This document shows positions 4,547-62,400 of a stretch of 64,000 nucleotides of DNA, one piece after another. Under the pieces are notes generated by a model that did no database searches, was not told where the DNA came from, and saw only the letters and a program-made list of their open reading frames with translations. Origin of the DNA: Candidatus Omnitrophota bacterium (GTDB lineage: Bacteria > Omnitrophota > Gorgyraeia > Gygaellales > Profunditerraquicolaceae); NCBI GenBank assembly GCA_020058085.1, contig JAGVER010000003.1, forward strand, positions 3,708 to 67,707. Reading direction: 5' to 3'. Numbering within the stretch: the stretch's first letter is position 1; each line of letters begins with the position of its first letter. A program made the translations under genes and the position numbers.

Positions 4547-6811
4547 ATGGTTAAGACCAAGAGTTCAAGGAAGGTAGTTAAAAAAGAACCTGCTCTTAAG
4601 GCTAAAAAGATAGTAAAGAAGGCTGTTAAGACAAGCCAACGGGCAGTGGTTTGGCATCCTCTGGCCAAAGCTACAACTAAGGTTGTCAAGCCGGTTAAGA
4701 AAGCTCTCTCTCTACCTAAATCTAAGAAAATCGTTACGCACAAAATACATACTGCGCCAGTTTCTAAGCCAACGCCTGCTATTAGGCTAGAAGGCCATGG
4801 TTTGGCCTCCTCTAGCCAAAGCCACAAGCCAGCGGGCAGTGGTTTGGCCTCCTCTAGCCAAAGCCACAAGCCAGCGGGCAGTGGTTTGCCTTCCTTTAGG
4901 CAAAGCCATAAATTAGAGCCTGTGGTTAAGCCGGAAATTAAAGTTGTTGAACCTAAGGTTGAAAATAGGCCGCATATTCAGGTTAAACCAGTGGTGAAAC
5001 CAGAGGTAAAGCCTGAAGTAAAAGCAGAGGTTGAAGTTGTTAAACCGAAAGTTGAACTTAAAGATTTAGAATTAGTACTTCCTATTACCCTTAAAGATTT
5101 GGCTATAAAGCTTCAGGAAAAGCCGTCAGTAATTATTAAGATGCTTATGGATATAAAAATAATGGCGGGGATAAATCAGACTTTAGATGAATCTATAGTA
5201 GAAAAAATTTGCGAAAAATATCATTGTAAGATTAAGAAGGCATTAGGAGAAGAAGAAATAGTTTTAAGCGCGCACGCGCTTGAGGATGAGGTAAAAGATT
5301 TAAAGCCGCGCTCATCCGTTGTTACATTCATGGGGCACGTTGACCATGGGAAAACTTCTCTTCTTGATGCCATAAGGAAAACTAAGGTTGCCGAATCCGA
5401 GCATGGCGGGATTACTCAGCATATCGGAGCTTATCGGGTAATTCTAAATCACGGAGAGATAACATTTTTGGATACTCCAGGACATGAAGCATTTACTGCT
5501 ATGCGTTCACGGGGCGCCAAGATTACTGATATAGTAGTCTTGGTTGTTGCCGCGGATGATGGTATTATGCCCCAGACTCAAGAGGCCATAGATCATGCCC
5601 GGGCAGCAGGCGTCTCTATAATCGTGGCTATAAACAAGATTGATAAAGCCGGCGCAGATGTTGATCAGGTGAAGAAGCAATTAGCTAAACTTGGCTTAAA
5701 TCCCGAGGATTGGGGTGGTAAGACCATAGTTGTCCCGGTATCAGCCAAGACAGGCGAAGGAATAGATAATCTTTTAGAGATGATTATATTAGAGTCGCAG
5801 ATGCTGGAATTAAAGGCTAATCCTAACCGGTTAGCGCGAGGAGTTGTTATTGAGGCCCAGATGTCTAAAGGGAGAGGTCCGGTAGCGACGTTTCTTGTGC
5901 AAAACGGTACTTTACATTTAAACGAAAATATCATTGTCGGTAATTTTTATGGCAAGATTCGGGCGATGTTTAATGATCATGGGCAGTCTGTAACTAGCGC
6001 TGCTCCTTCGGTCCCTGTTGAAGTTTTAGGTATTTCAGGCGTACCCGCGGCGGGAGAACAGTTTTTTGCCATTCTTCAGGAGAAAGAAGCTAAGGATTTA
6101 GCCTTTTTACGTATGGAAAAAGAAAGAGAGAATCAGGTGAAAACAGTAAAGCGTATAAGCCTGGAAGACTTGCATGCTCAGATTCAGGAAGGTAAGATAA
6201 AAGAATTAAAATTAATTATCAAGGCGGATGTTCAGGGTTCGCTTGAGGCAATCAGAGAGACCTTGAATAAGATGAATGTATCGGAGATAAAACTGGATTT
6301 TATACACTCTGGTGTAGGTAATATCAATAGCTCGGATATTATATTAGCGGTTGCTTCTAATGCTTTGATTTTAGGATTCAATGTTGATATTGACGATTTA
6401 GCTAAAGAACTTATGGCTAAAGAAGGGGTGGATGTAAAAAACTATAATATCATTTACGAATTAGCCAATGATATTAAAGCAGCAATTGAGGGTATGCTTG
6501 AGCCTAAGATTAAGAGAATTTTCTTAGGACGGGCTGAAGTTAGAAAGATGTTTAAGCTTTCCCGTTCGGGTATAGTCGCAGGATGCTTTGTTACTAAGGG
6601 TAAGTTTACCCGTAACTGTTTAGTTAATCTGGTCAGGAATGGAGCAGTAGTTTTTGAAGGTAAGCTTTCTTCGCTGAAGCGTTTCAAAGATGATGTGCGT
6701 GAAGTTGCTGAAGGTTTTGATTGCGGTATTAGCTTAGCCGGGTTCGACCAGTTGGCAGAGGGCGATATTATTGAAGCTTATACCGAAGAGAAGATAGCCA
6801 GAAGAATATGA
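4547..6811 (+). CDS. infB: Translation initiation factor IF-2
   Basis: G-domain motifs [20 protein letters not shown] and NKIDK. The repetitive, low-complexity N-terminal region carries the palindromic repeats. Confidence 0.95.
4632..4675 (+). repeat. Diverged copy of the same palindromic repeat inside infB, read in a different frame
   Basis: CAAGCCAACGGGCAGTGGTTTGGCATCCTCTGGCCAAAGCTACA compared with the unit CAAGCCAGCGGGCAGTGGTTTGGCCTCCTCTAGCCAAAGCCACA. Confidence 0.8.
4786..4911 (+). repeat. Tandem array of the palindromic repeat inside infB: two perfect 42-bp units (4798-4839, 4840-4881) plus a variant third copy
   Basis: Direct reading shows the unit TGGTTTGGCCTCCTCTAGCCAAAGCCACAAGCCAGCGGGCAG twice. 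Each unit contains the hairpin TGGTTTGGC/GCCAAAGCCA and is translated as [14 protein letters not shown]. Confidence 0.9.
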
Positions 6812-12379: not shown

Positions 12380-12399
12380 GTTGTTCTTACATAGTTTTT

Positions 12400-12600
12400 A
12401 GCGTCTGTCTTGTCTTTGCTTCATTCGGCACCGTTCGTCCCGCCCCACCGAGGCGAGACTCACTTGAAGTTTATGCTCGCTCGCCGTTAACTCTGTATTA
12501 GCGAAGGCACCTGGCCGCTCGCATAAACTAACATGCCGCCTGAACCAAAGCCAATCCATCCGCTAAAATCGACATTCGCTCAAAAATCCACCAGTGTCAT
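12400..12600 (+). repeat. Degenerate copy of the 42.7-kb inverted-repeat element, in the queA-downstream gap
   Basis: It shares the exact 20-mer GCTAAAATCGACATTCGCTC (12562-12581 = 42936-42955) and a similar right end (CCAGTGTCATTTT vs CCAGAGACATTT). It also has internal GC-rich hairpins, e.g. GTTTATGC/GCATAAAC. The boundaries are approximate. Confidence 0.5.
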
Positions 12601-12688
12601 TTTCTGGGGGGAGTGCGTAATTCATGAATTTGAGTTACTTTGCCTAACCTGCCTGTAGGCAGGCGCTCGAACACGGAGGATAATTGAT

Positions 12689-42168: not shown

Positions 42169-42196
42169 AGTATACTTGAAAAAGTGGCATTGTCAA
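42169..42196 (-). promoter_or_regulatory. Sigma70-type promoter for rpmB (minus strand)
   Basis: The minus strand reads TTGACA (complement of 42191-42196), a 16-bp spacer, then TATACT (complement of 42169-42174). Confidence 0.65.
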
Positions 42197-42246
42197 GAGG
42201 GTTTCTCATCTAGCCTGTTTCTCTCCGATTTTAAGCGTAGGTTATG

Positions 42247-42304
42247 GGGGACGGTTCTATTTTTCCATTTTTCTAGGTTTCTATTGAAAAATAGAACTGT
42301 CCCC
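42247..42304. promoter_or_regulatory. 18-bp inverted repeat (1 mismatch) between the divergent rpmB and HTH promoters; operator or insulator/terminator hairpin
   Basis: GGGGACGGTTCTATTTTT (42247-42264) pairs with AAAAATAGAACTGTCCCC (42287-42304), followed by TAGTTTTT. A related half-site, GGACAGATAGTTCTA, occurs near 45320. Confidence 0.55.
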
Positions 42305-42320
42305 TAGTTTTTAAAAGAAC

Positions 42321-42349
42321 TTGACATTTATACACCAATGGCGTATACT
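42321..42349 (+). promoter_or_regulatory. Sigma70-type promoter for the XRE HTH gene
   Basis: TTGACA (42321-42326), a 17-bp spacer, then TATACT (42344-42349), 22 nt before the ATG. A GGAGG RBS is present. Confidence 0.7.
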
Positions 42350-42371
42350 TTAAGTGTGAAGGAGGCGCAAT

Positions 42372-42662
42372 ATGAACAATAAGAACTTTGGAGATTTATT
42401 AACAAGTATCGGACAGGCTAGGAAGATACATAGCGGCAGAATGAAACCCGGGAATATCTCTAAGTTTCATCCAATAATTGTAAAAAGAATACGTAAGAAA
42501 CTCCATAAATCCCAAACCGAATTTGCCTATTTAATCGGAGTTAGCGTTGATACTTTGCAGAATTGGGAACAGGGTAGGAGAAGGCCCGAAGGCCCGGCAT
42601 TGGCATTACTAAGAGTAGCGCAGTCTAATCCGGAAGTTGTTATAAAAGCTCTACATGCATAA
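42372..42662 (+). CDS. XRE-family HTH protein with MqsA/NadS-type antitoxin-like architecture, no cognate toxin ORF adjacent
   Basis: 96 aa. IRKKLHKSQTEFAYLIGVSVDTLQNWEQGRRRPEGPALALLRVAQSNPEVV is a classic HTH with the RxPxGxAxxLL tail. It has its own TTGACA-17-TATACT promoter. Confidence 0.75.
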   Translation: MNNKNFGDLLTSIGQARKIHSGRMKPGNISKFHPIIVKRIRKKLHKSQTEFAYLIGVSVDTLQNWEQGRRRPEGPALALLRVAQSNPEVVIKALHA

Positions 42663-42727
42663 TTTGTCCTTTAGAGCCCCATTTTTAAGGTTGCACCCGT
42701 ATTGAATCAGCAGTAGAATAAGTTTTG

Positions 42728-42976
42728 TAAATGTCTCTGGCAAGCTTCTCGCTCAGGTCGATTTTGCCACATAAAGTTACTATTTAGGCAATGCCAATGA
42801 TCTTTCGTATTTCGGCGGCAAAACAACTCGCGCTTCGGCTTCTGGCCTTGGCGCTCAAACAGTTTTGCCGTGCCTGTGTTGTCTCCCGCCTATGGCGGTA
42901 TCCACAGGCATTTCCTCAGTGCTCAAGCTCCATTGGCTAAAATCGACATTCGCTCGAACCATGCCAGAGACATTTA
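42728..42976 (+). repeat. ~249-bp element with 15-bp perfect terminal inverted repeats and several internal hairpins (MITE-like or structured ncRNA)
   Basis: TAAATGTCTCTGGCA (42728-42742) is the exact reverse complement of 42962-42976. The sub-terminal arms also pair (GTCGATTTTGCC / GGCTAAAATCGAC). Internal stems include CGGCAAAAC/GTTTTGCCG, GCCTGTG/CACAGGC and CCGCC/GGCGG. Confidence 0.7.
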
Positions 42977-43106
42977 AATAGGCTGAGGAGTCATTGGGAT
43001 TCATTGATTTGTTAGTAGCTATCTAGAAACGGTCTGGAATTTTTCGGATGATCATGTTGACAAAGGAGTAAAGAAATTGGATTTTTGACGGAGAGAATAT
43101 TAATTC

Positions 43107-44225
43107 ATGTTTGGACAATGGTTGGGCGGGACAATAGGAACAAATAAAGGTTTTTGTGTTTTGAATATAGAACCCGGTGCGCCATTAGAAGGCAGAATAA
43201 TGTTTTTTGACATGGACCAAACAAAGCATTCAATGTGGGCAAGCGTCTCTTTTAAGATAGAAAATGACAAGATAACAGGTAATTTATACAATTATCTGGT
43301 TTTCTACAAAAACGAATTAATAAAAAGCGAGGAATTAAATAAAGAAATCGCGCCTGAAAGATATCCAGTTACTGGCGAAATTAACGGCTCATTTATAGGA
43401 GGAAAGCTCAAGGGTAATTTTAAAACTAATGTAAATACTTTTGGAGAGTTTATTCTTACTAAAACCGTGCTTGGAGAGCCAACTAAGCCTAATCGAGAAA
43501 TGAGTTGGGGTGAATATAAGAAATTTGTCAGCGAGCTTGATCGAACCAACAAAGTCATAATCTTCCGGGGTCAATCCAATAATAATCAAAGATTAGTGAC
43601 TACTTACCATAGGTCAGGTAGGGCGGATTTATTTAGATATCTTGGTGGCGATATCCCAAATTTAGTTCGTTTTATAAATTTGATTCCGCCATACAAGTAT
43701 GATTTAAACAAAATCGGAGATCTTGATGCATTGTTAGGATTAGTTCAGCACCACGAATACCCAACTCCTTTCCTTGATTGGACAGAATCACCTTATATTG
43801 CTGCCTATTTCGCTTATAGAAAAGCAAAAAATGACCAACAGACCGACAAGGTTAGAATTTTCATTTTTGATACTGTTCCCTGGGTAAGTTTTTGGCAGGC
43901 AATAGCTCAAAACACTATATTAATAGCACCTAAGCCCGTTATTTCTATTCATAATCTTACCTCAACGAATAATAACCGAGCTATTCGACAAAAAGCAGTT
44001 TCAGTATTTTCTAATATTGTCGATATGGAAGCTTTTTTTGATGCGTCCAAAGAAACGGGGAAGTTGCCGGATTCTTTTTTTCAAAGAATTGACTTGCCAT
44101 ATTCTGAGAAAGAAGCAGCAATGAATGATCTTTTAGATATGGAGATTAGCACCGCAACATTATTCCCAGGTTTAGATGGGGTTTGTAGGTTCTTAAGTGA
44201 GCAATATTTTGGGAAAATAAATTAA
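43107..44225 (+). CDS. FRG-domain protein with unassigned ~130-aa N-terminal domain
   Basis: VIIFRGQSNNNQRLVTTYHR (the FRG motif at nt 43563-43571) and LGLVQHHEYPTPFLDWTESPYIAAYFA (the QHxGxPTxxLDWTxSP core of the FRG family). Confidence 0.75.
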   Translation: MFGQWLGGTIGTNKGFCVLNIEPGAPLEGRIMFFDMDQTKHSMWASVSFKIENDKITGNLYNYLVFYKNELIKSEELNKEIAPERYPVTGEINGSFIGGKLKGNFKTNVNTFGEFILTKTVLGEPTKPNREMSWGEYKKFVSELDRTNKVIIFRGQSNNNQRLVTTYHRSGRADLFRYLGGDIPNLVRFINLIPPYKYDLNKIGDLDALLGLVQHHEYPTPFLDWTESPYIAAYFAYRKAKNDQQTDKVRIFIFDTVPWVSFWQAIAQNTILIAPKPVISIHNLTSTNNNRAIRQKAVSVFSNIVDMEAFFDASKETGKLPDSFFQRIDLPYSEKEAAMNDLLDMEISTATLFPGLDGVCRFLSEQYFGKIN

Positions 44226-44236
44226 TTCCTATATAA

Positions 44237-44255
44237 TAGGCACATTTTGGGCACA
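44237..44255 (+). repeat. 19-nt direct repeat copy 1, 12 nt after the FRG gene stop
   Basis: TAGGCACATTTTGGGCACA, containing GGCACA-N4-GGGCACA. Confidence 0.7.
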
Positions 44256-44356
44256 AAGCAAAAAAGTGATGTTCTTAACTTGCTGCAAGATAACAGATAA
44301 AAGTTAATTGATGTAGAGCGAGGTGTTCTAATACCATGTTAGAATGAGGGTTGCAA

Positions 44357-45205
44357 ATGAAAGTTATTGCTCCGCTATTCAACTTTTGGTGTAAAGAGGG
44401 AATATCAGAATTTAAAATTACAAAATACTTCTCAATAAAGAAAGAAAAATACAACATAAAGAATGATGATGCAAAAGATTTTTTGTCCAAATATGAAAGA
44501 AGCGATATCTCTGAATGTGATTTTTTGGCAGAGATTGATAATGAGCCCAAAGATTTGAGTCCGGGAGAAATACTGAATGCATTTCTTTTGTCTATCTGGT
44601 TTATAGGACCTACTAAAGTCACAATTACCCATAGATTTGAAGAACCAAATACTATTTCAAGAATGCTGGATAGATTTCAACCTAATAAAAAAGATATATT
44701 TAAAGAAGAGCTATCAAAGGAGGATCTAAATACAGTTGCAAATTATTTCAAGTTGCTAATCAAGATAAGAAGAAGTAAAAAAAGATTATTCACTGCACTT
44801 GCTAATACATATCAAGGATGTATTGCACACCAATGGAAAGTAGCTTTTGTTCTTTTTACTGCAGCATTAGAAGCTATGTTGACATATAGCAGAGATGTGG
44901 GGATAACTAAACGATTATCTAAATCTTATGCTTGTGTAGTAGGAAAGACTAAATACAAAAGAGACCGCTACTATAGGCAATTTTATGGTCTTTACAGTGT
45001 ACGTTCAGATATAATGCATGGAAGAATAAGAAAATATTCAAAACCAGAAGGAAATTTGAAGTCTCTTTCAAAATTAGCAATATTATTAAGAAAACTATGG
45101 CAGGGTATATTAGAGAATGCTGCTTTATTAAATGCTTTAGAAAAAGACGATATGAACAGAAAACATTTTTTCAAGAATTTGGAACAGGGATATATTGCAC
45201 CTTGA
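44357..45205 (+). CDS. HEPN-like protein (Rx4H motif), function unknown (alternative TTG start at 44351)
   Basis: The C-terminal helical region has FTAALEAMLTY ... FYGLYSVRSDIMHGR, with R-S-D-I-M-H at nt 45002-45019. The N-terminal ~140 aa are unassigned. Confidence 0.6.
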   Translation: MKVIAPLFNFWCKEGISEFKITKYFSIKKEKYNIKNDDAKDFLSKYERSDISECDFLAEIDNEPKDLSPGEILNAFLLSIWFIGPTKVTITHRFEEPNTISRMLDRFQPNKKDIFKEELSKEDLNTVANYFKLLIKIRRSKKRLFTALANTYQGCIAHQWKVAFVLFTAALEAMLTYSRDVGITKRLSKSYACVVGKTKYKRDRYYRQFYGLYSVRSDIMHGRIRKYSKPEGNLKSLSKLAILLRKLWQGILENAALLNALEKDDMNRKHFFKNLEQGYIAP

Positions 45206-45226
45206 GAGAACATAATAATTTATTTT

Positions 45227-45245
45227 TAGGCATTTTTTGGGCACA
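45227..45245 (+). repeat. 19-nt direct repeat copy 2, 22 nt after the HEPN-like gene stop
   Basis: TAGGCATTTTTTGGGCACA, identical to copy 1 at 17 of 19 positions and lying 990 bp from it. Confidence 0.7.
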
Positions 45246-45371
45246 TGGTAATTGAAGAAAAATCATAACTAATTATACCATAACAAATTTAACTCATTTT
45301 GAGTTAGGACAGATAGTTCTAACTACTTCTGCTTGGGATTTTTATTTATAAGCGGTATAATTGAAGAGTAA

Positions 45372-45471
45372 TTAGCGGGTGACTTGGTTTGCACCTTGCC
45401 TCAAAGGATAGGCAAGTGCGCCCTTTTGGGCGATTACGAGCAGCATGTTAAGCCAAGGCAGGACCCGCTAA
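45372..45471 (+). repeat. Structured GC-rich element A (outer stem plus two adjacent hairpins) 16 nt upstream of the helicase-nuclease start
   Basis: Outer stem TTAGCGGGT/ACCCGCTAA. Hairpin 1 is GCACCTTGCCT/AGGCAAGTGC. Hairpin 2 is CGCCC-TTTT-GGGCG. Confidence 0.7.
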
Positions 45472-45487
45472 ACACGAAATTATAATC

Positions 45488-59421: not shown

Positions 59422-62400
59422 ATGAATAAGATAAGCAGTAATTTTGTAAAGAAATTAAGGAAGTTACATTTCGTAATAGCTTTGGCGGTGTTAGGAGGGT
59501 TTTTGTTTGCTTCAACTGCTGAAGCCGTACAGATAAAAAGGGTGCAGACCGGTGAAATTTATTTTGATGCTGACGATATTACCCAGGTGGCTGAAATTTC
59601 AGCTGTGGATCAGAGCAAAACGATTGTGCTGCTTTATCCGAAGCCGGATTTAAATACCGGAACTAATGCGCGGCAGAATATTCTCTTTTCCGCTGATTTC
59701 GGTTCCGATACCGATTTAGTGCTTACCCGTGACGGCGCCAGTTACGGAGTTACGGTGCGTTATTATTTAATCGAGTTTGCCGACGGGGTTAATGTTACCC
59801 GCGGTATCTCTTCTTTTGCCGCCGGCAGCCCGACTAACACCAAATATACTACCAAAAATATCGCGCTTTCTCCCAGCCTTACTGATTATAATAACGCGGT
59901 AGCCATTGTGCAAACCCGCTCCGCTCTTACTACTTCTACTAGTGATGAAATTGCCACCGTCAGGGCCAGTATTCCTGATAATAATACCTTAACCTTAGAC
60001 CGTTACGCGACTAATGATGTCCTCAAGAGCGTGAATATGGTTTGGCAGATAGCGGAGTTTACTAAAGATGTCACAGTCAAGCAAGGAACGGCGACGATTG
60101 CCGTGAACTCTACTTCGCAAACCGCGACAATTAATCCAGCGATAGGCACTCTGGGCAAAGCCTTGTTATTATTTAGCTGTAAAGCTAACCGCAGCGTAAA
60201 TGGTATCGAAGGGTATGAGGATATCAGAGGGGTAATTACTAATGCCACAACCCTTACTTTTACCCGCGGCTACAGCAGCTCGACTACTTTAACTGATGTG
60301 GCGATCAACTGGTTTGTTATTGAGTTAACTGACCCTTTGAGCACTGTTCAGAGCGCAGGCGCTCTTTCTGTGGCTAGCGCTGTAGAAGGCATAGGTATAA
60401 CTTTAGGTACGGCGGTAGATCCCACCCGCTCGGTGCCGATTTTTACGGTTTCCGGCCCTGCCAGCCAGAGTGGTTCCGGCTATGAAGATGAGAACAGGTT
60501 TTCTGTTGAAAGAGACTCTCCGCGTGGTGTTGTTTATGTATCGGGAACTCCGGGAGAGGTCTGGGTAGCTAATTATTATTCCAATACTGTAACCCGGTAT
60601 AATGCTTCTACCGGAGCCTTAGTGGGCAGCGTGATCACCGTAGGGACCGGGCCGATTGCCTTGTGTTATAGCGCGGTTAATCCGGCTTCAGTCTGGGTAG
60701 CTAACTATCTTTCGGATAATGTTACCAGGATAGACGCCTCTACCGGAGCAGTGATCGAGACCGTGGCATTAACTGCGGGAGCAGCGCCGCTTGGTATTGC
60801 CGCGGACGCGACCTCTTCTTCGGTGTGGACTGCTAATAGCGGGATGACTTCTAGCAGTAACGTGGTAACTAGGATTGTTGTGGATACCAGCAGTCCTTAC
60901 GCGAGTGTGGCTACTAATTATAACGGTTATGCGGGGTATCCGGTGGCTATCTGTTATGACCCGGGTTCAGGCGGCAGCAGCCCTTATATGTGGGTAGGTT
61001 ATCAGGTGAGCGATAGAATTACCAGATTTCTCTGTACCAATCCGGCAACTTCTGTTAACTATGACTTAGGGGCCACGAACAACTTCTATAACTCGATTGT
61101 TTACGCTCCTCCTGGCTTCGGAGGCTATGCTAGCCCAAGCCTCTGGATTACTTCAGCCAGAAATAACTTTATTTCACGCGCAACTTTAAATTCTTCTACA
61201 CATGCTTATTCCTCTCAAACTACGTTTGGCACCGAGCTTAATCCCAAAGGAGTTGACCTTATCGGCAGTGGAGCAAGCGGTAAAATAGCTTTTACCAATT
61301 ACGGTTCCAATACCATGAACATCATGAATCCTAATGACGGCACGACGACTGCCTATGCTACGCAGTCAAACCCCTGGGGCTTAAGTTATGATGCTACCAA
61401 CAGTAAGATCTGGGTAACTAACTCCTCCAGCGGTTCGTTTATGAAGTTTGACGCTGACGGATCAAACCCGGTGGCTTATCTGCCGAATTCTATTTTGACT
61501 AATTATTATTTTGCCCGCCTTAACGCTACCACTACCGGCGCCGATACCATTAGCTGGTTTGTCCCGGAATTTTGCCCGTTTACCTTAAATAACCCTAATG
61601 GCGCCGATACTTGGGTTATTGGCAGTAATGTGGATATTACCTGGAAATACGCTGATTCTTTAAAAACCGGCGGTGGCGGTACCGGCACTGTGCATCGCGT
61701 AAAGTTGGAGCTCTCTACTAACGGAACCAACTGGTATGAGATTCCCGGTGCCTCTAGCTTAGATATCAGCAATGGTTATGATTCGGCTGTCAGTAATGAC
61801 GGTAAGTTTACCTGGAGTAATCTTCCGGCTGCAATTACCGGGATTAATAATGATATCGGCACGACTTTAAAAGTTAAGATCTCCGATATCGAAACCGGAT
61901 ATACCGGCTTCTATGATACCTCGAATAATAATTTTAACATTAAAGGACTTCTTACCGTGGATACTCCTCCGGATACCTGGAAATTAGGCGAAACAAAAAA
62001 TATTACCTGGAGCACAAAAGGTAAATTGAATGATTCGGCATTCTCTCCGGATAATGATATGACAATTTACTTGTCTACGGATGGCGTGACTTTTAATCAT
62101 ACCTTGACTGCTGTTGCCGACCCGGGTACAGACGGCACCAGCAATAATCCCTGGAGCTGGGCGAATATTCCCTCAAGTATAGAAAGGAACGCGCCGGAGC
62201 AGGGGACATTTGATAATACTATCAGCTCGAATAACAAGATAAAGATAAAGTCTAATTATACCGCAGCCGGGACGGTAGAGAGTATTGGTAACGCGTTTGT
62301 CTTAAAAGGAACAATAAGTAATGTTAGGGTTACTAATGCCGGTGGCACTACAATGACCTCCTGCCTTCGCGGCGGCGCCTATAAAGTGAAGTGGAGTAAA

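Follow-up and report, generated by a model that had tools for sequence, protein, structure and literature searches.

Several classes of structured, non-autonomous intergenic repeats have been described in bacteria. The repetitive extragenic palindromes of the Proteobacteria (REP/BIME/REPIN) are mobilised by RAYT, a HUH transposase, and consist of 20-40-nt units with a conserved 5' GTAG; in the BIMEs, two palindromic unit types alternate in orientation after stop codons. The ERIC (IRU) and Correia (CREE) repeats give rise to RNA hairpins processed by RNase III or RNase E, and Correia elements carry conserved 26-bp terminal inverted repeats (TIRs) and a TA duplication. The attC sites of integrons are bounded by R'' (RYYYAAC) and R' (GTTRRRY) boxes, occur in direct arrays of open reading frames (ORFs) and attC sites, and depend on an integron integrase. 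Here, a 249-nt element, T1, is described from a 64-kb stretch of contig JAGVER010000003.1 of a Candidatus Omnitrophota bacterium (the window; 64,000 nt in full), a member of an uncultivated, globally distributed phylum. T1 belongs to a family of rod-shaped palindromic repeats (rods) with a partner family, T2, and is read here, with a probability of roughly 55 %, as a module of a new, structure-constrained, non-autonomous mobile repeat.

The closest known kind is the REP/BIME, ERIC and Correia class. As in REP and BIME, the rods are extragenic palindromes located just past stop codons in operons, in either orientation, with asymmetric stem mismatches defining that orientation; they form genome-specific sequence families, and are non-autonomous and free of target-site duplications. 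The likeness to BIMEs extends to two unit types that are mutually inverted across short spacers (T2 to the right of T1 in 72/76 cases and on the opposite strand in 33/39). In contrast to REP units, T1 and T2 are five to ten times larger (100-250 versus 20-40 nt), have a branched, Y-shaped tip, conserved internal loops with non-canonical pairs and optional hairpins, and their pairs can enclose genes. No GTAG motif was noticed in the T1/T2 sequences or consensus (no dedicated scan was run), and no RAYT/HUH gene was found in the fetched loci, among the ORFs near about 165 copies. With ERIC and Correia elements, which are imperfect palindromes of 100-160 bp, the rods share this palindromic form, their multicopy occurrence in transcribed intergenic regions and a presence and orientation that vary between related genomes; they differ in lacking sequence similarity to either, in that T1 has neither conserved TIRs nor a TA duplication, and in the greater covariation and fixed partner element of T1. 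The attC sites resemble the rods in that structure is conserved over sequence, one strand folds, and small promoterless accessory ORFs, mostly of no known function, differ between relatives. However, the R/L box consensus is not matched, arrays and an integrase are absent from the loci, the rods are inverted, T1 has about 100 highly conserved positions, and most T1-T2 pairs are empty. [quoted passage not shown]

The T1 fold and its covariation

The window element is a complete family copy, matched by the nhmmer family profile (64 members) over 42729-42975 (E = 3e-51) and by the T1 covariance model with 180.7 bits over model positions 1-219/219. Its first 15 nt (TAAATGTCTCTGGCA, 42728-42742) are the exact reverse complement of 42962-42976, confirming the perfect 15-bp TIR of the original prediction, which was made from the sequence alone. 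By an arithmetic estimate, chance would yield about 0.02 perfect inverted repeats of 15 nt within 300 nt in 64 kb. The sub-terminal pairing also proposed there extends the arms to 38 nt at 82 % complementarity in a repeat finder, the longest inverted repeat in the window. Compared with shuffled sequence, T1 folds as RNA at -97.5 kcal/mol (z = -7.6) on the plus strand and -105.9 kcal/mol (z = -9.2) on the minus strand, and when folded as DNA reaches z = -7.0 and -8.6, respectively. The minimum-energy fold contains all three internal GC-rich stems noted previously (CGGCAAAAC/GTTTTGCCG, GCCTGTG/CACAGGC and CCGCC/GGCGG). The parts of the element are as follows:

42728-42976, minus strand (the better-folding, purine-mismatch strand): complete T1 copy, supported by profile, covariance model and fold z-scores
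42728-42748: P1 left arm, outer stem; the TIR plus a GAA/UUC extension, pairing with 42956-42976; 12/12 P1 pairs double-changed
42749-42756: left strand of the 8x8 internal loop, TCGCTCAG; minus-strand reading CUGAGCGA
42757-42765: P2 left arm, GTCGATTTT, with its partner AAAATCGAC at 42939-42947; 99.5 % of cells paired
42766-42791: variable, optional hairpin lying between P2 and P3 (alignment columns 52-90), carried by about half of the copies with differing length and sequence; folds as a hairpin
42793-42799: P3 left arm, GCCAATG, with its partner CATTGGC at 42931-42937
42816-42870: P5 stem CGGCAAAAC/GTTTTGCCG enclosing hairpin P5a, one branch of the Y-shaped tip; 9/9 P5a pairs double-changed
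42871-42910: P6 hairpin TGCCTGTG/CACAGGCA with inner CCGCC/GGCGG, the second branch of the tip; 7/7 pairs double-changed
42931-42937: P3 right arm, CATTGGC, from the pair count
42939-42947: P2 right arm, AAAATCGAC, same helix in the pair count
42948-42955: right strand of the 8x8 internal loop, ATTCGCTC; minus-strand reading GAGCGAAU
42956-42976: P1 right arm, outer stem, from the inverted repeat, the fold and covariation

The consensus of the family follows the same plan, with a variable P1 of about 19 bp, the 8x8 loop TCGCTCAG/ATTCGCTC, P2 GTCGATTTT/AAAATCGAC and an optional hairpin, followed further in by P3 (GCCAA[T/A]G/C[A/T]TTGGC), short helices with TC/TC mismatches, and a three-way junction with two co-varying hairpins. 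Among 70 complete copies (median 225 nt) the P1 arms differ in sequence and still pair within each copy, for example as CGCGTATAGGTATCTGAT.../...ATCAGATACCTATACGCG, GAAGAAAGAAAAGG/CCTTTTCTTTCTTC and GTTCCACTATAGCCTGCTG/CAGGCTATAGTGTAAC. Thus the T1 'TIR' is a structural, co-varying helix and not a TIR of the transposase type, as its sequence varies between copies while complementarity holds. Even the copies within a single genome (CAZQEY01) differ by compensated P1 changes.

Pairing was counted over a 67-pair structure in an alignment of 61 copies, built with MAFFT without fitting to any structure, and was compared with shuffled copies and with controls in which the partner was slid by 1-3 columns:

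Cells paired: observed 92.7 %; shuffled 78.6 ± 0.4 %; slid 38-46 %
Pairs with changes on both sides: observed 45 of 67; shuffled 30.9 ± 2.1; slid 18-25
Covariation score: observed 0.350; shuffled 0.123; slid 0.05-0.08

Relatedness among the copies inflates the significance given by the shuffle control, and the slid controls and the double changes per helix constitute the stronger evidence. Double changes are found at every pair of P1, P6 and P5a (12/12, 7/7 and 9/9), and the central P3 pair (columns 53/212) is U-A in 33 copies and A-U in 28, with no broken cells. The whole T1 fold, comprising P1, the 8x8 loop, P2, P3 and the two-hairpin Y-shaped tip, is therefore shown to be kept by compensatory change. 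The original prediction had named an alignment lacking both conserved ends and covariation as a finding that would speak against it; covariation is present, with 45/67 pairs double-changed. Its observation that the inner hairpins exceed what a MITE foldback needs is borne out by their covariation across copies.

The minus strand is the more stable one in 65/65 copies (mean -105.8 versus -93.1 kcal/mol), since the conserved loops and TC/TC mismatches become tandem G·A pairs on it. Read from the sequence, the minus-strand 8x8 loop (5'-GAGCGAAU/5'-CUGAGCGA) would form G·A, A·G, G-C, C-G, G·A, A·G and A-U. The invariance of its right strand (42948-42955) is biased, as this lies inside the 20-mer with which the copies were retrieved (see below), but TGAGCGA, in the left loop strand and outside the search word, is found in 57/65 copies, and the other GA-bearing motifs CTTGAG, GTYYGAG and YGAGTT in 62/65, 56/65 and 59/65, respectively. 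Wobble pairs lean modestly to the minus strand (G·U 128 versus A·C 81), and when the structure is derived from the plus strand, that strand still has more A·C (127) than G·U (100) pairs. The purine-mismatch minus strand of T1 is thus shown to be the better-folding one in the predicted fold, and the folded species may be RNA or single-stranded DNA (ssDNA). This fold, which has a three-way junction, about 67 base pairs and tandem G·A motifs numbering at least four or five, is unusually rich in information for structure researchers, with more than 200 natural variants that can be used in modelling.

Distribution, pairing and turnover of the rods

With the exact 20-mer GCTAAAATCGACATTCGCTC (window 42936-42955) as search word in a one-genome-per-species collection, 84 loci were found in 44 Omnitrophota assemblies, with up to nine loci per assembly and many of them at contig ends, and metagenome contigs contributed at least 120 further stretches. 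As all copies were fished with this one word, the conservation of this segment is biased, and the copy numbers, drawn from incomplete metagenome-assembled genomes (MAGs), are lower bounds. Nearly all matches are MAGs or single-amplified genomes of Candidatus Omnitrophota, and no match was found in viral contigs, phage records or plasmid records. Some T1 copies occur in MAGs that are not labelled Omnitrophota, including an Atribacterota MAG (L018) and several labelled 'uncultured Planctomycetales' (L004 and others), which is probably a matter of binning or labelling. A protein on a 72-kb NCBI/JGI contig is identical to the window's RecJ, whose close relatives carry Omnitrophota annotations. At gathering thresholds, no Rfam 15 family, including riboswitches, 6S RNA, ribozymes and the HEARO and IS605-orfB RNAs, matched anywhere in the window; matches around T1 up to E <= 10 were at chance level only (snoTBR17, KCNQ1OT1), none was found at E <= 1 around the two T2 regions, and a tRNA/tmRNA search yielded none. 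Full-text literature searches produced no paper tying Omnitrophota to such a repeat, RNA motif, MITE or integron, and the Omnitrophota genome papers examined do not mention such a repeat.

A protein-coding nature of T1 was rejected, as the best anchored frame is open in at most 24/65 copies and motif spacing is uniform modulo 3. Simple ORF calls produce ORFs that read through the element in 25/84 loci; these are artefacts of its high G+C content. In practice the repeats break assemblies and cause spurious ORF extensions. T1 is a member of an apparently undescribed superfamily of non-coding, rod-shaped palindromic repeats confined to Omnitrophota, multicopy and dispersed, a matter that the original prediction had left to a copy count.

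The copies are strictly intergenic. In many, the distance from the upstream stop codon to the left end is -6 to +20 nt, and some 20-130 nt separate the right end from the start of the next gene. Orientation relative to co-directional neighbours is mixed (25:12), and both orientations occur at the same orthologous site in different genomes at queA-tgt, rplM-argC, cinA-ligT and amidohydrolase-MTAP. Copies within an assembly are more alike (median identity 88 %, maximum 96 %) than copies of different assemblies (71 %), and the nearest copy is in the same genome for 24/59 copies overall, nearly always for those of the multicopy genomes CAZQEY01, JBDRHJ01 and JBFZAG01, and is not the syntenic copy of a different genome. 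The T1 family is thus shown to be multicopy, with amplification inside lineages. Some copies are truncated, internally deleted or reduced to an arm, among them an internally deleted T1 of 118 nt (L071). Other arrangements include a T2 flanked by two inverted T1 copies (L012:2901-3559), a back-to-back T1 pair (L006:2451-2949), and T2 on either side of T1 (L014 and L039).

Partner rods were sought by iterative nhmmer within 3 kb of 166 T1 copies, some of these loci being duplicated between two collections. A T2-like rod lies near 76/166 copies, and the nearest T2 is to the right of T1, in the orientation of the 20-mer, in 72/76 and to the left in 4/76 (binomial p = 3.6e-17), in a search that covered both sides, with most of its seeds taken from the right of T1. 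The gaps are bimodal, with 52 of 10-144 nt and 20 of 386-2397 nt. In 33 of the 39 right-hand cases the stable strand of T2 is opposite to that of T1, so the two rods are mutually inverted, like the two ends of an element. Generic folding of the flanks gave equal medians, with 43 versus 16 flanks at or below -75 kcal/mol; the equal medians are due to the left flanks being coding, and homology-based T2 detection was used for this reason. In the window the pair encloses genes:

42977-45371, plus strand: cargo between T1 and T2, comprising an FRG-domain gene, a 284-aa ORF and a promoter-like site
45372-45474, plus strand: T2 rod, partner of T1, with termini TTAGCGGGTG...GGACCCGCTAA (z = -3.9/-4.0), detected by iterative nhmmer

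Rods and cargo at the same site are shown to be present, absent or swapped between close relatives. The amidohydrolase-MTAP site is empty in L065, where the spacer measures 83 nt; it holds T1 and a second rod in L005, T1, cargo and T2 in L061 and L078, T1 and more than 1 kb of cargo in L066, and the whole arrangement in inverted form in L051. The rpmB-helicase site of the window was compared with five relatives (L205-L209) on contigs that encode RecJ at 89-91 % identity to that of the window, none of which has a T1. One (L208) is empty, with rpmB and the helicase gene 86 nt apart and the window block from about 42170 to 45474 absent. Two others (L206/L207) have nine different cargo genes (DUF3800, flavodoxin, SHOCT and others), which are followed by the promoter-like sequence and T2 left arm as in the window, almost identically so in L206. 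A fourth (L209) has other genes (ORF6N and flavodoxin), and L205 has the same helix-turn-helix (HTH) gene as the window followed by a T2a rod exactly at the position of T1, with both flanks orthologous. This comparison is the most direct evidence of gain, loss or exchange of rods at the DNA level, and on a short evolutionary scale. Hypervariable 'mobile-cargo' loci have been described in Omnitrophota in a preprint, with their mechanism left unresolved (10.64898/2026.06.07.730766). A phylum-wide, structured, bipartite repeat at variable sites provides a handle on the gain and loss of accessory and defence genes.

Mobility, RNA function and other readings

If T1 is a module of a mobile repeat, the rods would be spread and exchanged at the DNA level, presumably by a trans-acting enzyme that reads the folded single strand, its structure and not its end sequence, with gene conversion between copies adding to the spread. 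Such an enzyme and gene conversion would together explain why the structure is conserved without a conserved 'TIR' sequence, and why target-site duplications are absent. A rod between a stop codon and the next ribosome-binding site would be co-transcribed and, as a long hairpin, would probably serve as an mRNA processing or stabilising site, like REP, ERIC and Correia repeats. Long imperfect palindromes may furthermore make their sites prone to recombination, which would favour the accessory-gene turnover seen there.

Several points weigh against mobility. The target-site duplication and the transposase with matching ends that had been suggested as checks were not found: no duplication is consistent among the flanks of 70 T1 copies and about 25 T1+T2 composites, as judged by eye from a flank listing, and when the ORFs within 3.5 kb of about 165 copies were clustered, no transposase, recombinase, reverse transcriptase (RT) or integrase recurred, with only housekeeping families recurring on both sides. 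Identity between copies nowhere exceeds 96 %, so a recent transposition has not been captured. High conservation across the phylum extends to about half of the 220 positions; an end-binding enzyme usually requires less information than this, and a functional RNA or ribonucleoprotein (RNP) would suit it equally well. The swaps between relatives could come from homologous recombination after gene transfer, with no dedicated mobility, and the seeding of the T2 search and the heterogeneity of T2 bear on the pairing. A more specific form of the mobility reading, in which T1 and T2 are folded ssDNA substrates of a new structure-reading machinery (a recombinase/transposase or RNP) that moves rods and exchanges promoterless cargo, is rather unlikely; if true, it would represent a new gene-cassette system, with Y-shaped hairpin ends of 100-250 nt held by tandem G·A pairs.

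The alternative that fares best, although it is itself somewhat unlikely, is that T1 is primarily a functional structured RNA, either a minus-strand trans-acting RNA or RNP, or a cis-acting operon element (an RNase III or other processing site, a 3'-end stabiliser or an insulator), with its paralogues kept by host selection and not by selfish spread. This would be compatible with mobility. The strong covariation in every helix, the conserved loop nucleotides and the four or five or more tandem G·A motifs on one strand are what such an RNA would show, as are the optional hairpins of variable length, which occur in many RNA families, and the alternation of minus-strand U·G with C-G and U-A (for example, UG in 35 and CG in 21 copies at columns 141/177). 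The element also persists at queA-tgt and amidohydrolase-MTAP across species, and in the leader of the helicase gene the T2 at 45372 follows closely on a 10/12 promoter-like site. Several features of placement do not agree with this. Both orientations relative to the flanking genes occur at one orthologous site, gaps of -6 to about +30 nt to the neighbouring genes are too short for the element to have its own promoter or terminator, and -10-like hexamers beside T1 show no positional peak, by which a promoter composed of the T1 end and spacer was rejected. The copies form genome-specific and not orthologue clades, some of them are decayed, truncated or chimeric, a relative with 91 % RecJ identity has a T2a rod in place of T1, and nothing in Rfam 15 matches. 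Of the structured non-coding RNA suggested in the original prediction, the co-varying helices stand, while the orientation flips, genome-specific clades and lack of an Rfam 15 match speak against it.

A further alternative is that T1 and T2 are recombination sites of folded ssDNA, integron-like or otherwise structure-specific (tyrosine recombinase or HUH), between which promoterless cassettes are exchanged. The hallmarks of attC sites are present in the conservation of structure over sequence, the one better-folding strand and the variable length and sequence of T2; the cargo between T1 and T2 is small and mostly orphan or defence-type (FRG, DUF2971), always runs in the direction of the flanking genes irrespective of rod orientation, and changes between relatives in which the promoter and T2 arm stay; and rods are swapped at an identical position. 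This reading is nevertheless improbable, considering that ORF-rod arrays are lacking (L206 has nine cargo genes and one detected rod), the rod termini as read from the sequence (TTTAGCGG...CCGCTAAA) are unlike the attC R''/R' boxes, T1 and T2 are inverted where attC arrays are direct, no integrase occurs among the ORFs within 3.5 kb of about 165 copies, and most pairs have no cargo, with 52/72 right-hand gaps below 145 nt.

A classical MITE reading of T1, with internal deletion of a DDE insertion sequence and movement by a TIR-binding transposase, is highly improbable: the perfect 15-bp terminal inverted repeat of the window copy, its possible reading as AATG...CATT with TA on both sides, and the small, ORF-less, multicopy and intergenic nature of the element would suit it, but the termini differ between subfamilies (CGCGTATAGG..., GTTCCACTATAG..., GAAGAAAGAAAAGG...) and stay complementary, the flanks show no consistent duplication, TA or other, covariation runs throughout the interior, and no copy encloses a transposase. 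No autonomous IS with T1 ends and no split copy enclosing an ORF was found in 204 loci. What holds of the MITE first proposed is a multicopy, non-coding, dispersed element that varies in presence and absence; its co-varying ends and the lack of a target-site duplication and of a parent transposase in about 200 loci do not fit. A retron non-coding RNA was rejected, the family being multicopy and without a recurrent RT-like neighbour family (neighbours were clustered, not Pfam-screened), and likenesses to the hammerhead, K-turn, attC, bridge-RNA and group II domain V were likewise rejected on reading the sequence, as none agrees with the consensus.

The queA site, the cargo and minor features of the window

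An eroded second copy of the same element had been proposed at 12.4-12.6 kb, downstream of queA. The position beside queA is correct, with queA and tgt flanking the region, and the shared 20-mer (12562-12581 = 42936-42955) is exact, within a 30-nt match at 90 %. The identification as a copy of T1 does not hold, as only a 55-nt T1 right arm is matched by the T1 profile (12548-12602, E = 9e-8; covariance model 21.9 bits, compared with 180.7 at 42.7 kb) and the body belongs to the T2 family, being 84 % identical over 173 nt to L040:1026-1196 and matching the rod of a relative with E = 1.6e-30. Two features can be distinguished:

12397-12567, minus strand: T2a rod downstream of queA (minus -78.0 versus plus -55.4 kcal/mol; z = -4.0)
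12548-12602: T1 right-arm remnant (P3 right, P2 right, loop strand and P1 right), fused to T2a at a shared GCTAAAA, with no left arm

Since other genomes have an intact T1 at the queA-tgt site, in either orientation, the window has a T2a rod fused to a leftover T1 arm at GCTAAAA. Similar arm-only T1 remnants beside a T2 rod occur in L049, L072 and L073. The T2 family comprises heterogeneous rod-like palindromes of 100-240 nt, with termini of roughly TTTAGCGG...CCGCTAAA, in about 100 of the fetched loci. Like T1, T2 is Y-shaped, and tandem purine mismatches (pyrimidine on the other strand) can be read in the arms of the 12.4-kb copy and of L008. The right end of T2a resembles the inner rod of T1, and this sequence resemblance suggests that the two families are related.

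The genes around T1 are recJ, rpmB, an MqsA/XRE-type HTH gene, the FRG gene, the 284-aa ORF and a UvrD/PD-(D/E)XK helicase gene. The FRG-domain gene (43107-44225; Pfam E = 9.5e-17) starts 131 nt downstream of T1, bearing out the earlier placement of the element directly upstream of an FRG gene at the boundary of accessory genes; no record was returned by an exact-protein look-up of its product. It is followed by the 284-aa ORF (44351-45205), which belongs to no Pfam family. The T2 rod and the helicase gene are directly preceded by a promoter-like site (45333-45361; TTGGGA-17-TATAAT, 10/12), and T2 ends 13 nt before the helicase start codon (45488). A weak terminator-like hairpin (45302-45324) precedes this promoter-like site. 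The other long T1-T2 gaps contain one or two small ORFs, most of which match no Pfam family; a DUF2971 domain is present in the ORF after T1 in L020/L059, loci with no detected T2 rod. The cargo ORFs run in the direction of the flanking housekeeping genes, however the rods are oriented.

Upstream of T1, the antitoxin-like MqsA/XRE-type HTH gene (42372-42662; 96 aa) has a promoter-like site at 42321-42349 and no recognisable toxin partner; it is shared with L205 and absent from L206, L208 and L209. Between rpmB and this gene (42247-42304) is a 22-nt inverted repeat of 91 % complementarity (GGGGACGGTTCTATTTTTCCAT/ATTGAAAAATAGAACTGTCCCC), the right half of which is conserved in L206. This could be a terminator or the remnant of another element.

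Other repeats in the window include three tandem units of 42-46 nt at 42-nt spacing (4782-4911), with single units at 4631 and 2754 (2754-2799), each of which holds a small inverted repeat (TTTGGC...GCCAAA). Those at 4631-4911 are coding and unrelated to T1, as they lie inside a 754-aa ORF (4547-6811). A motif match at 60426 was rejected as due to chance; it falls in a stretch without a stop-bounded ORF of at least 60 aa, probably within a long ORF that extends beyond the window. At 60542-60749 there are two direct repeats of 76 nt, 71 % identical and 132 nt apart; this stretch, too, has no stop-bounded ORF of at least 60 aa and is probably a long ORF with repeats that continues outside the window.

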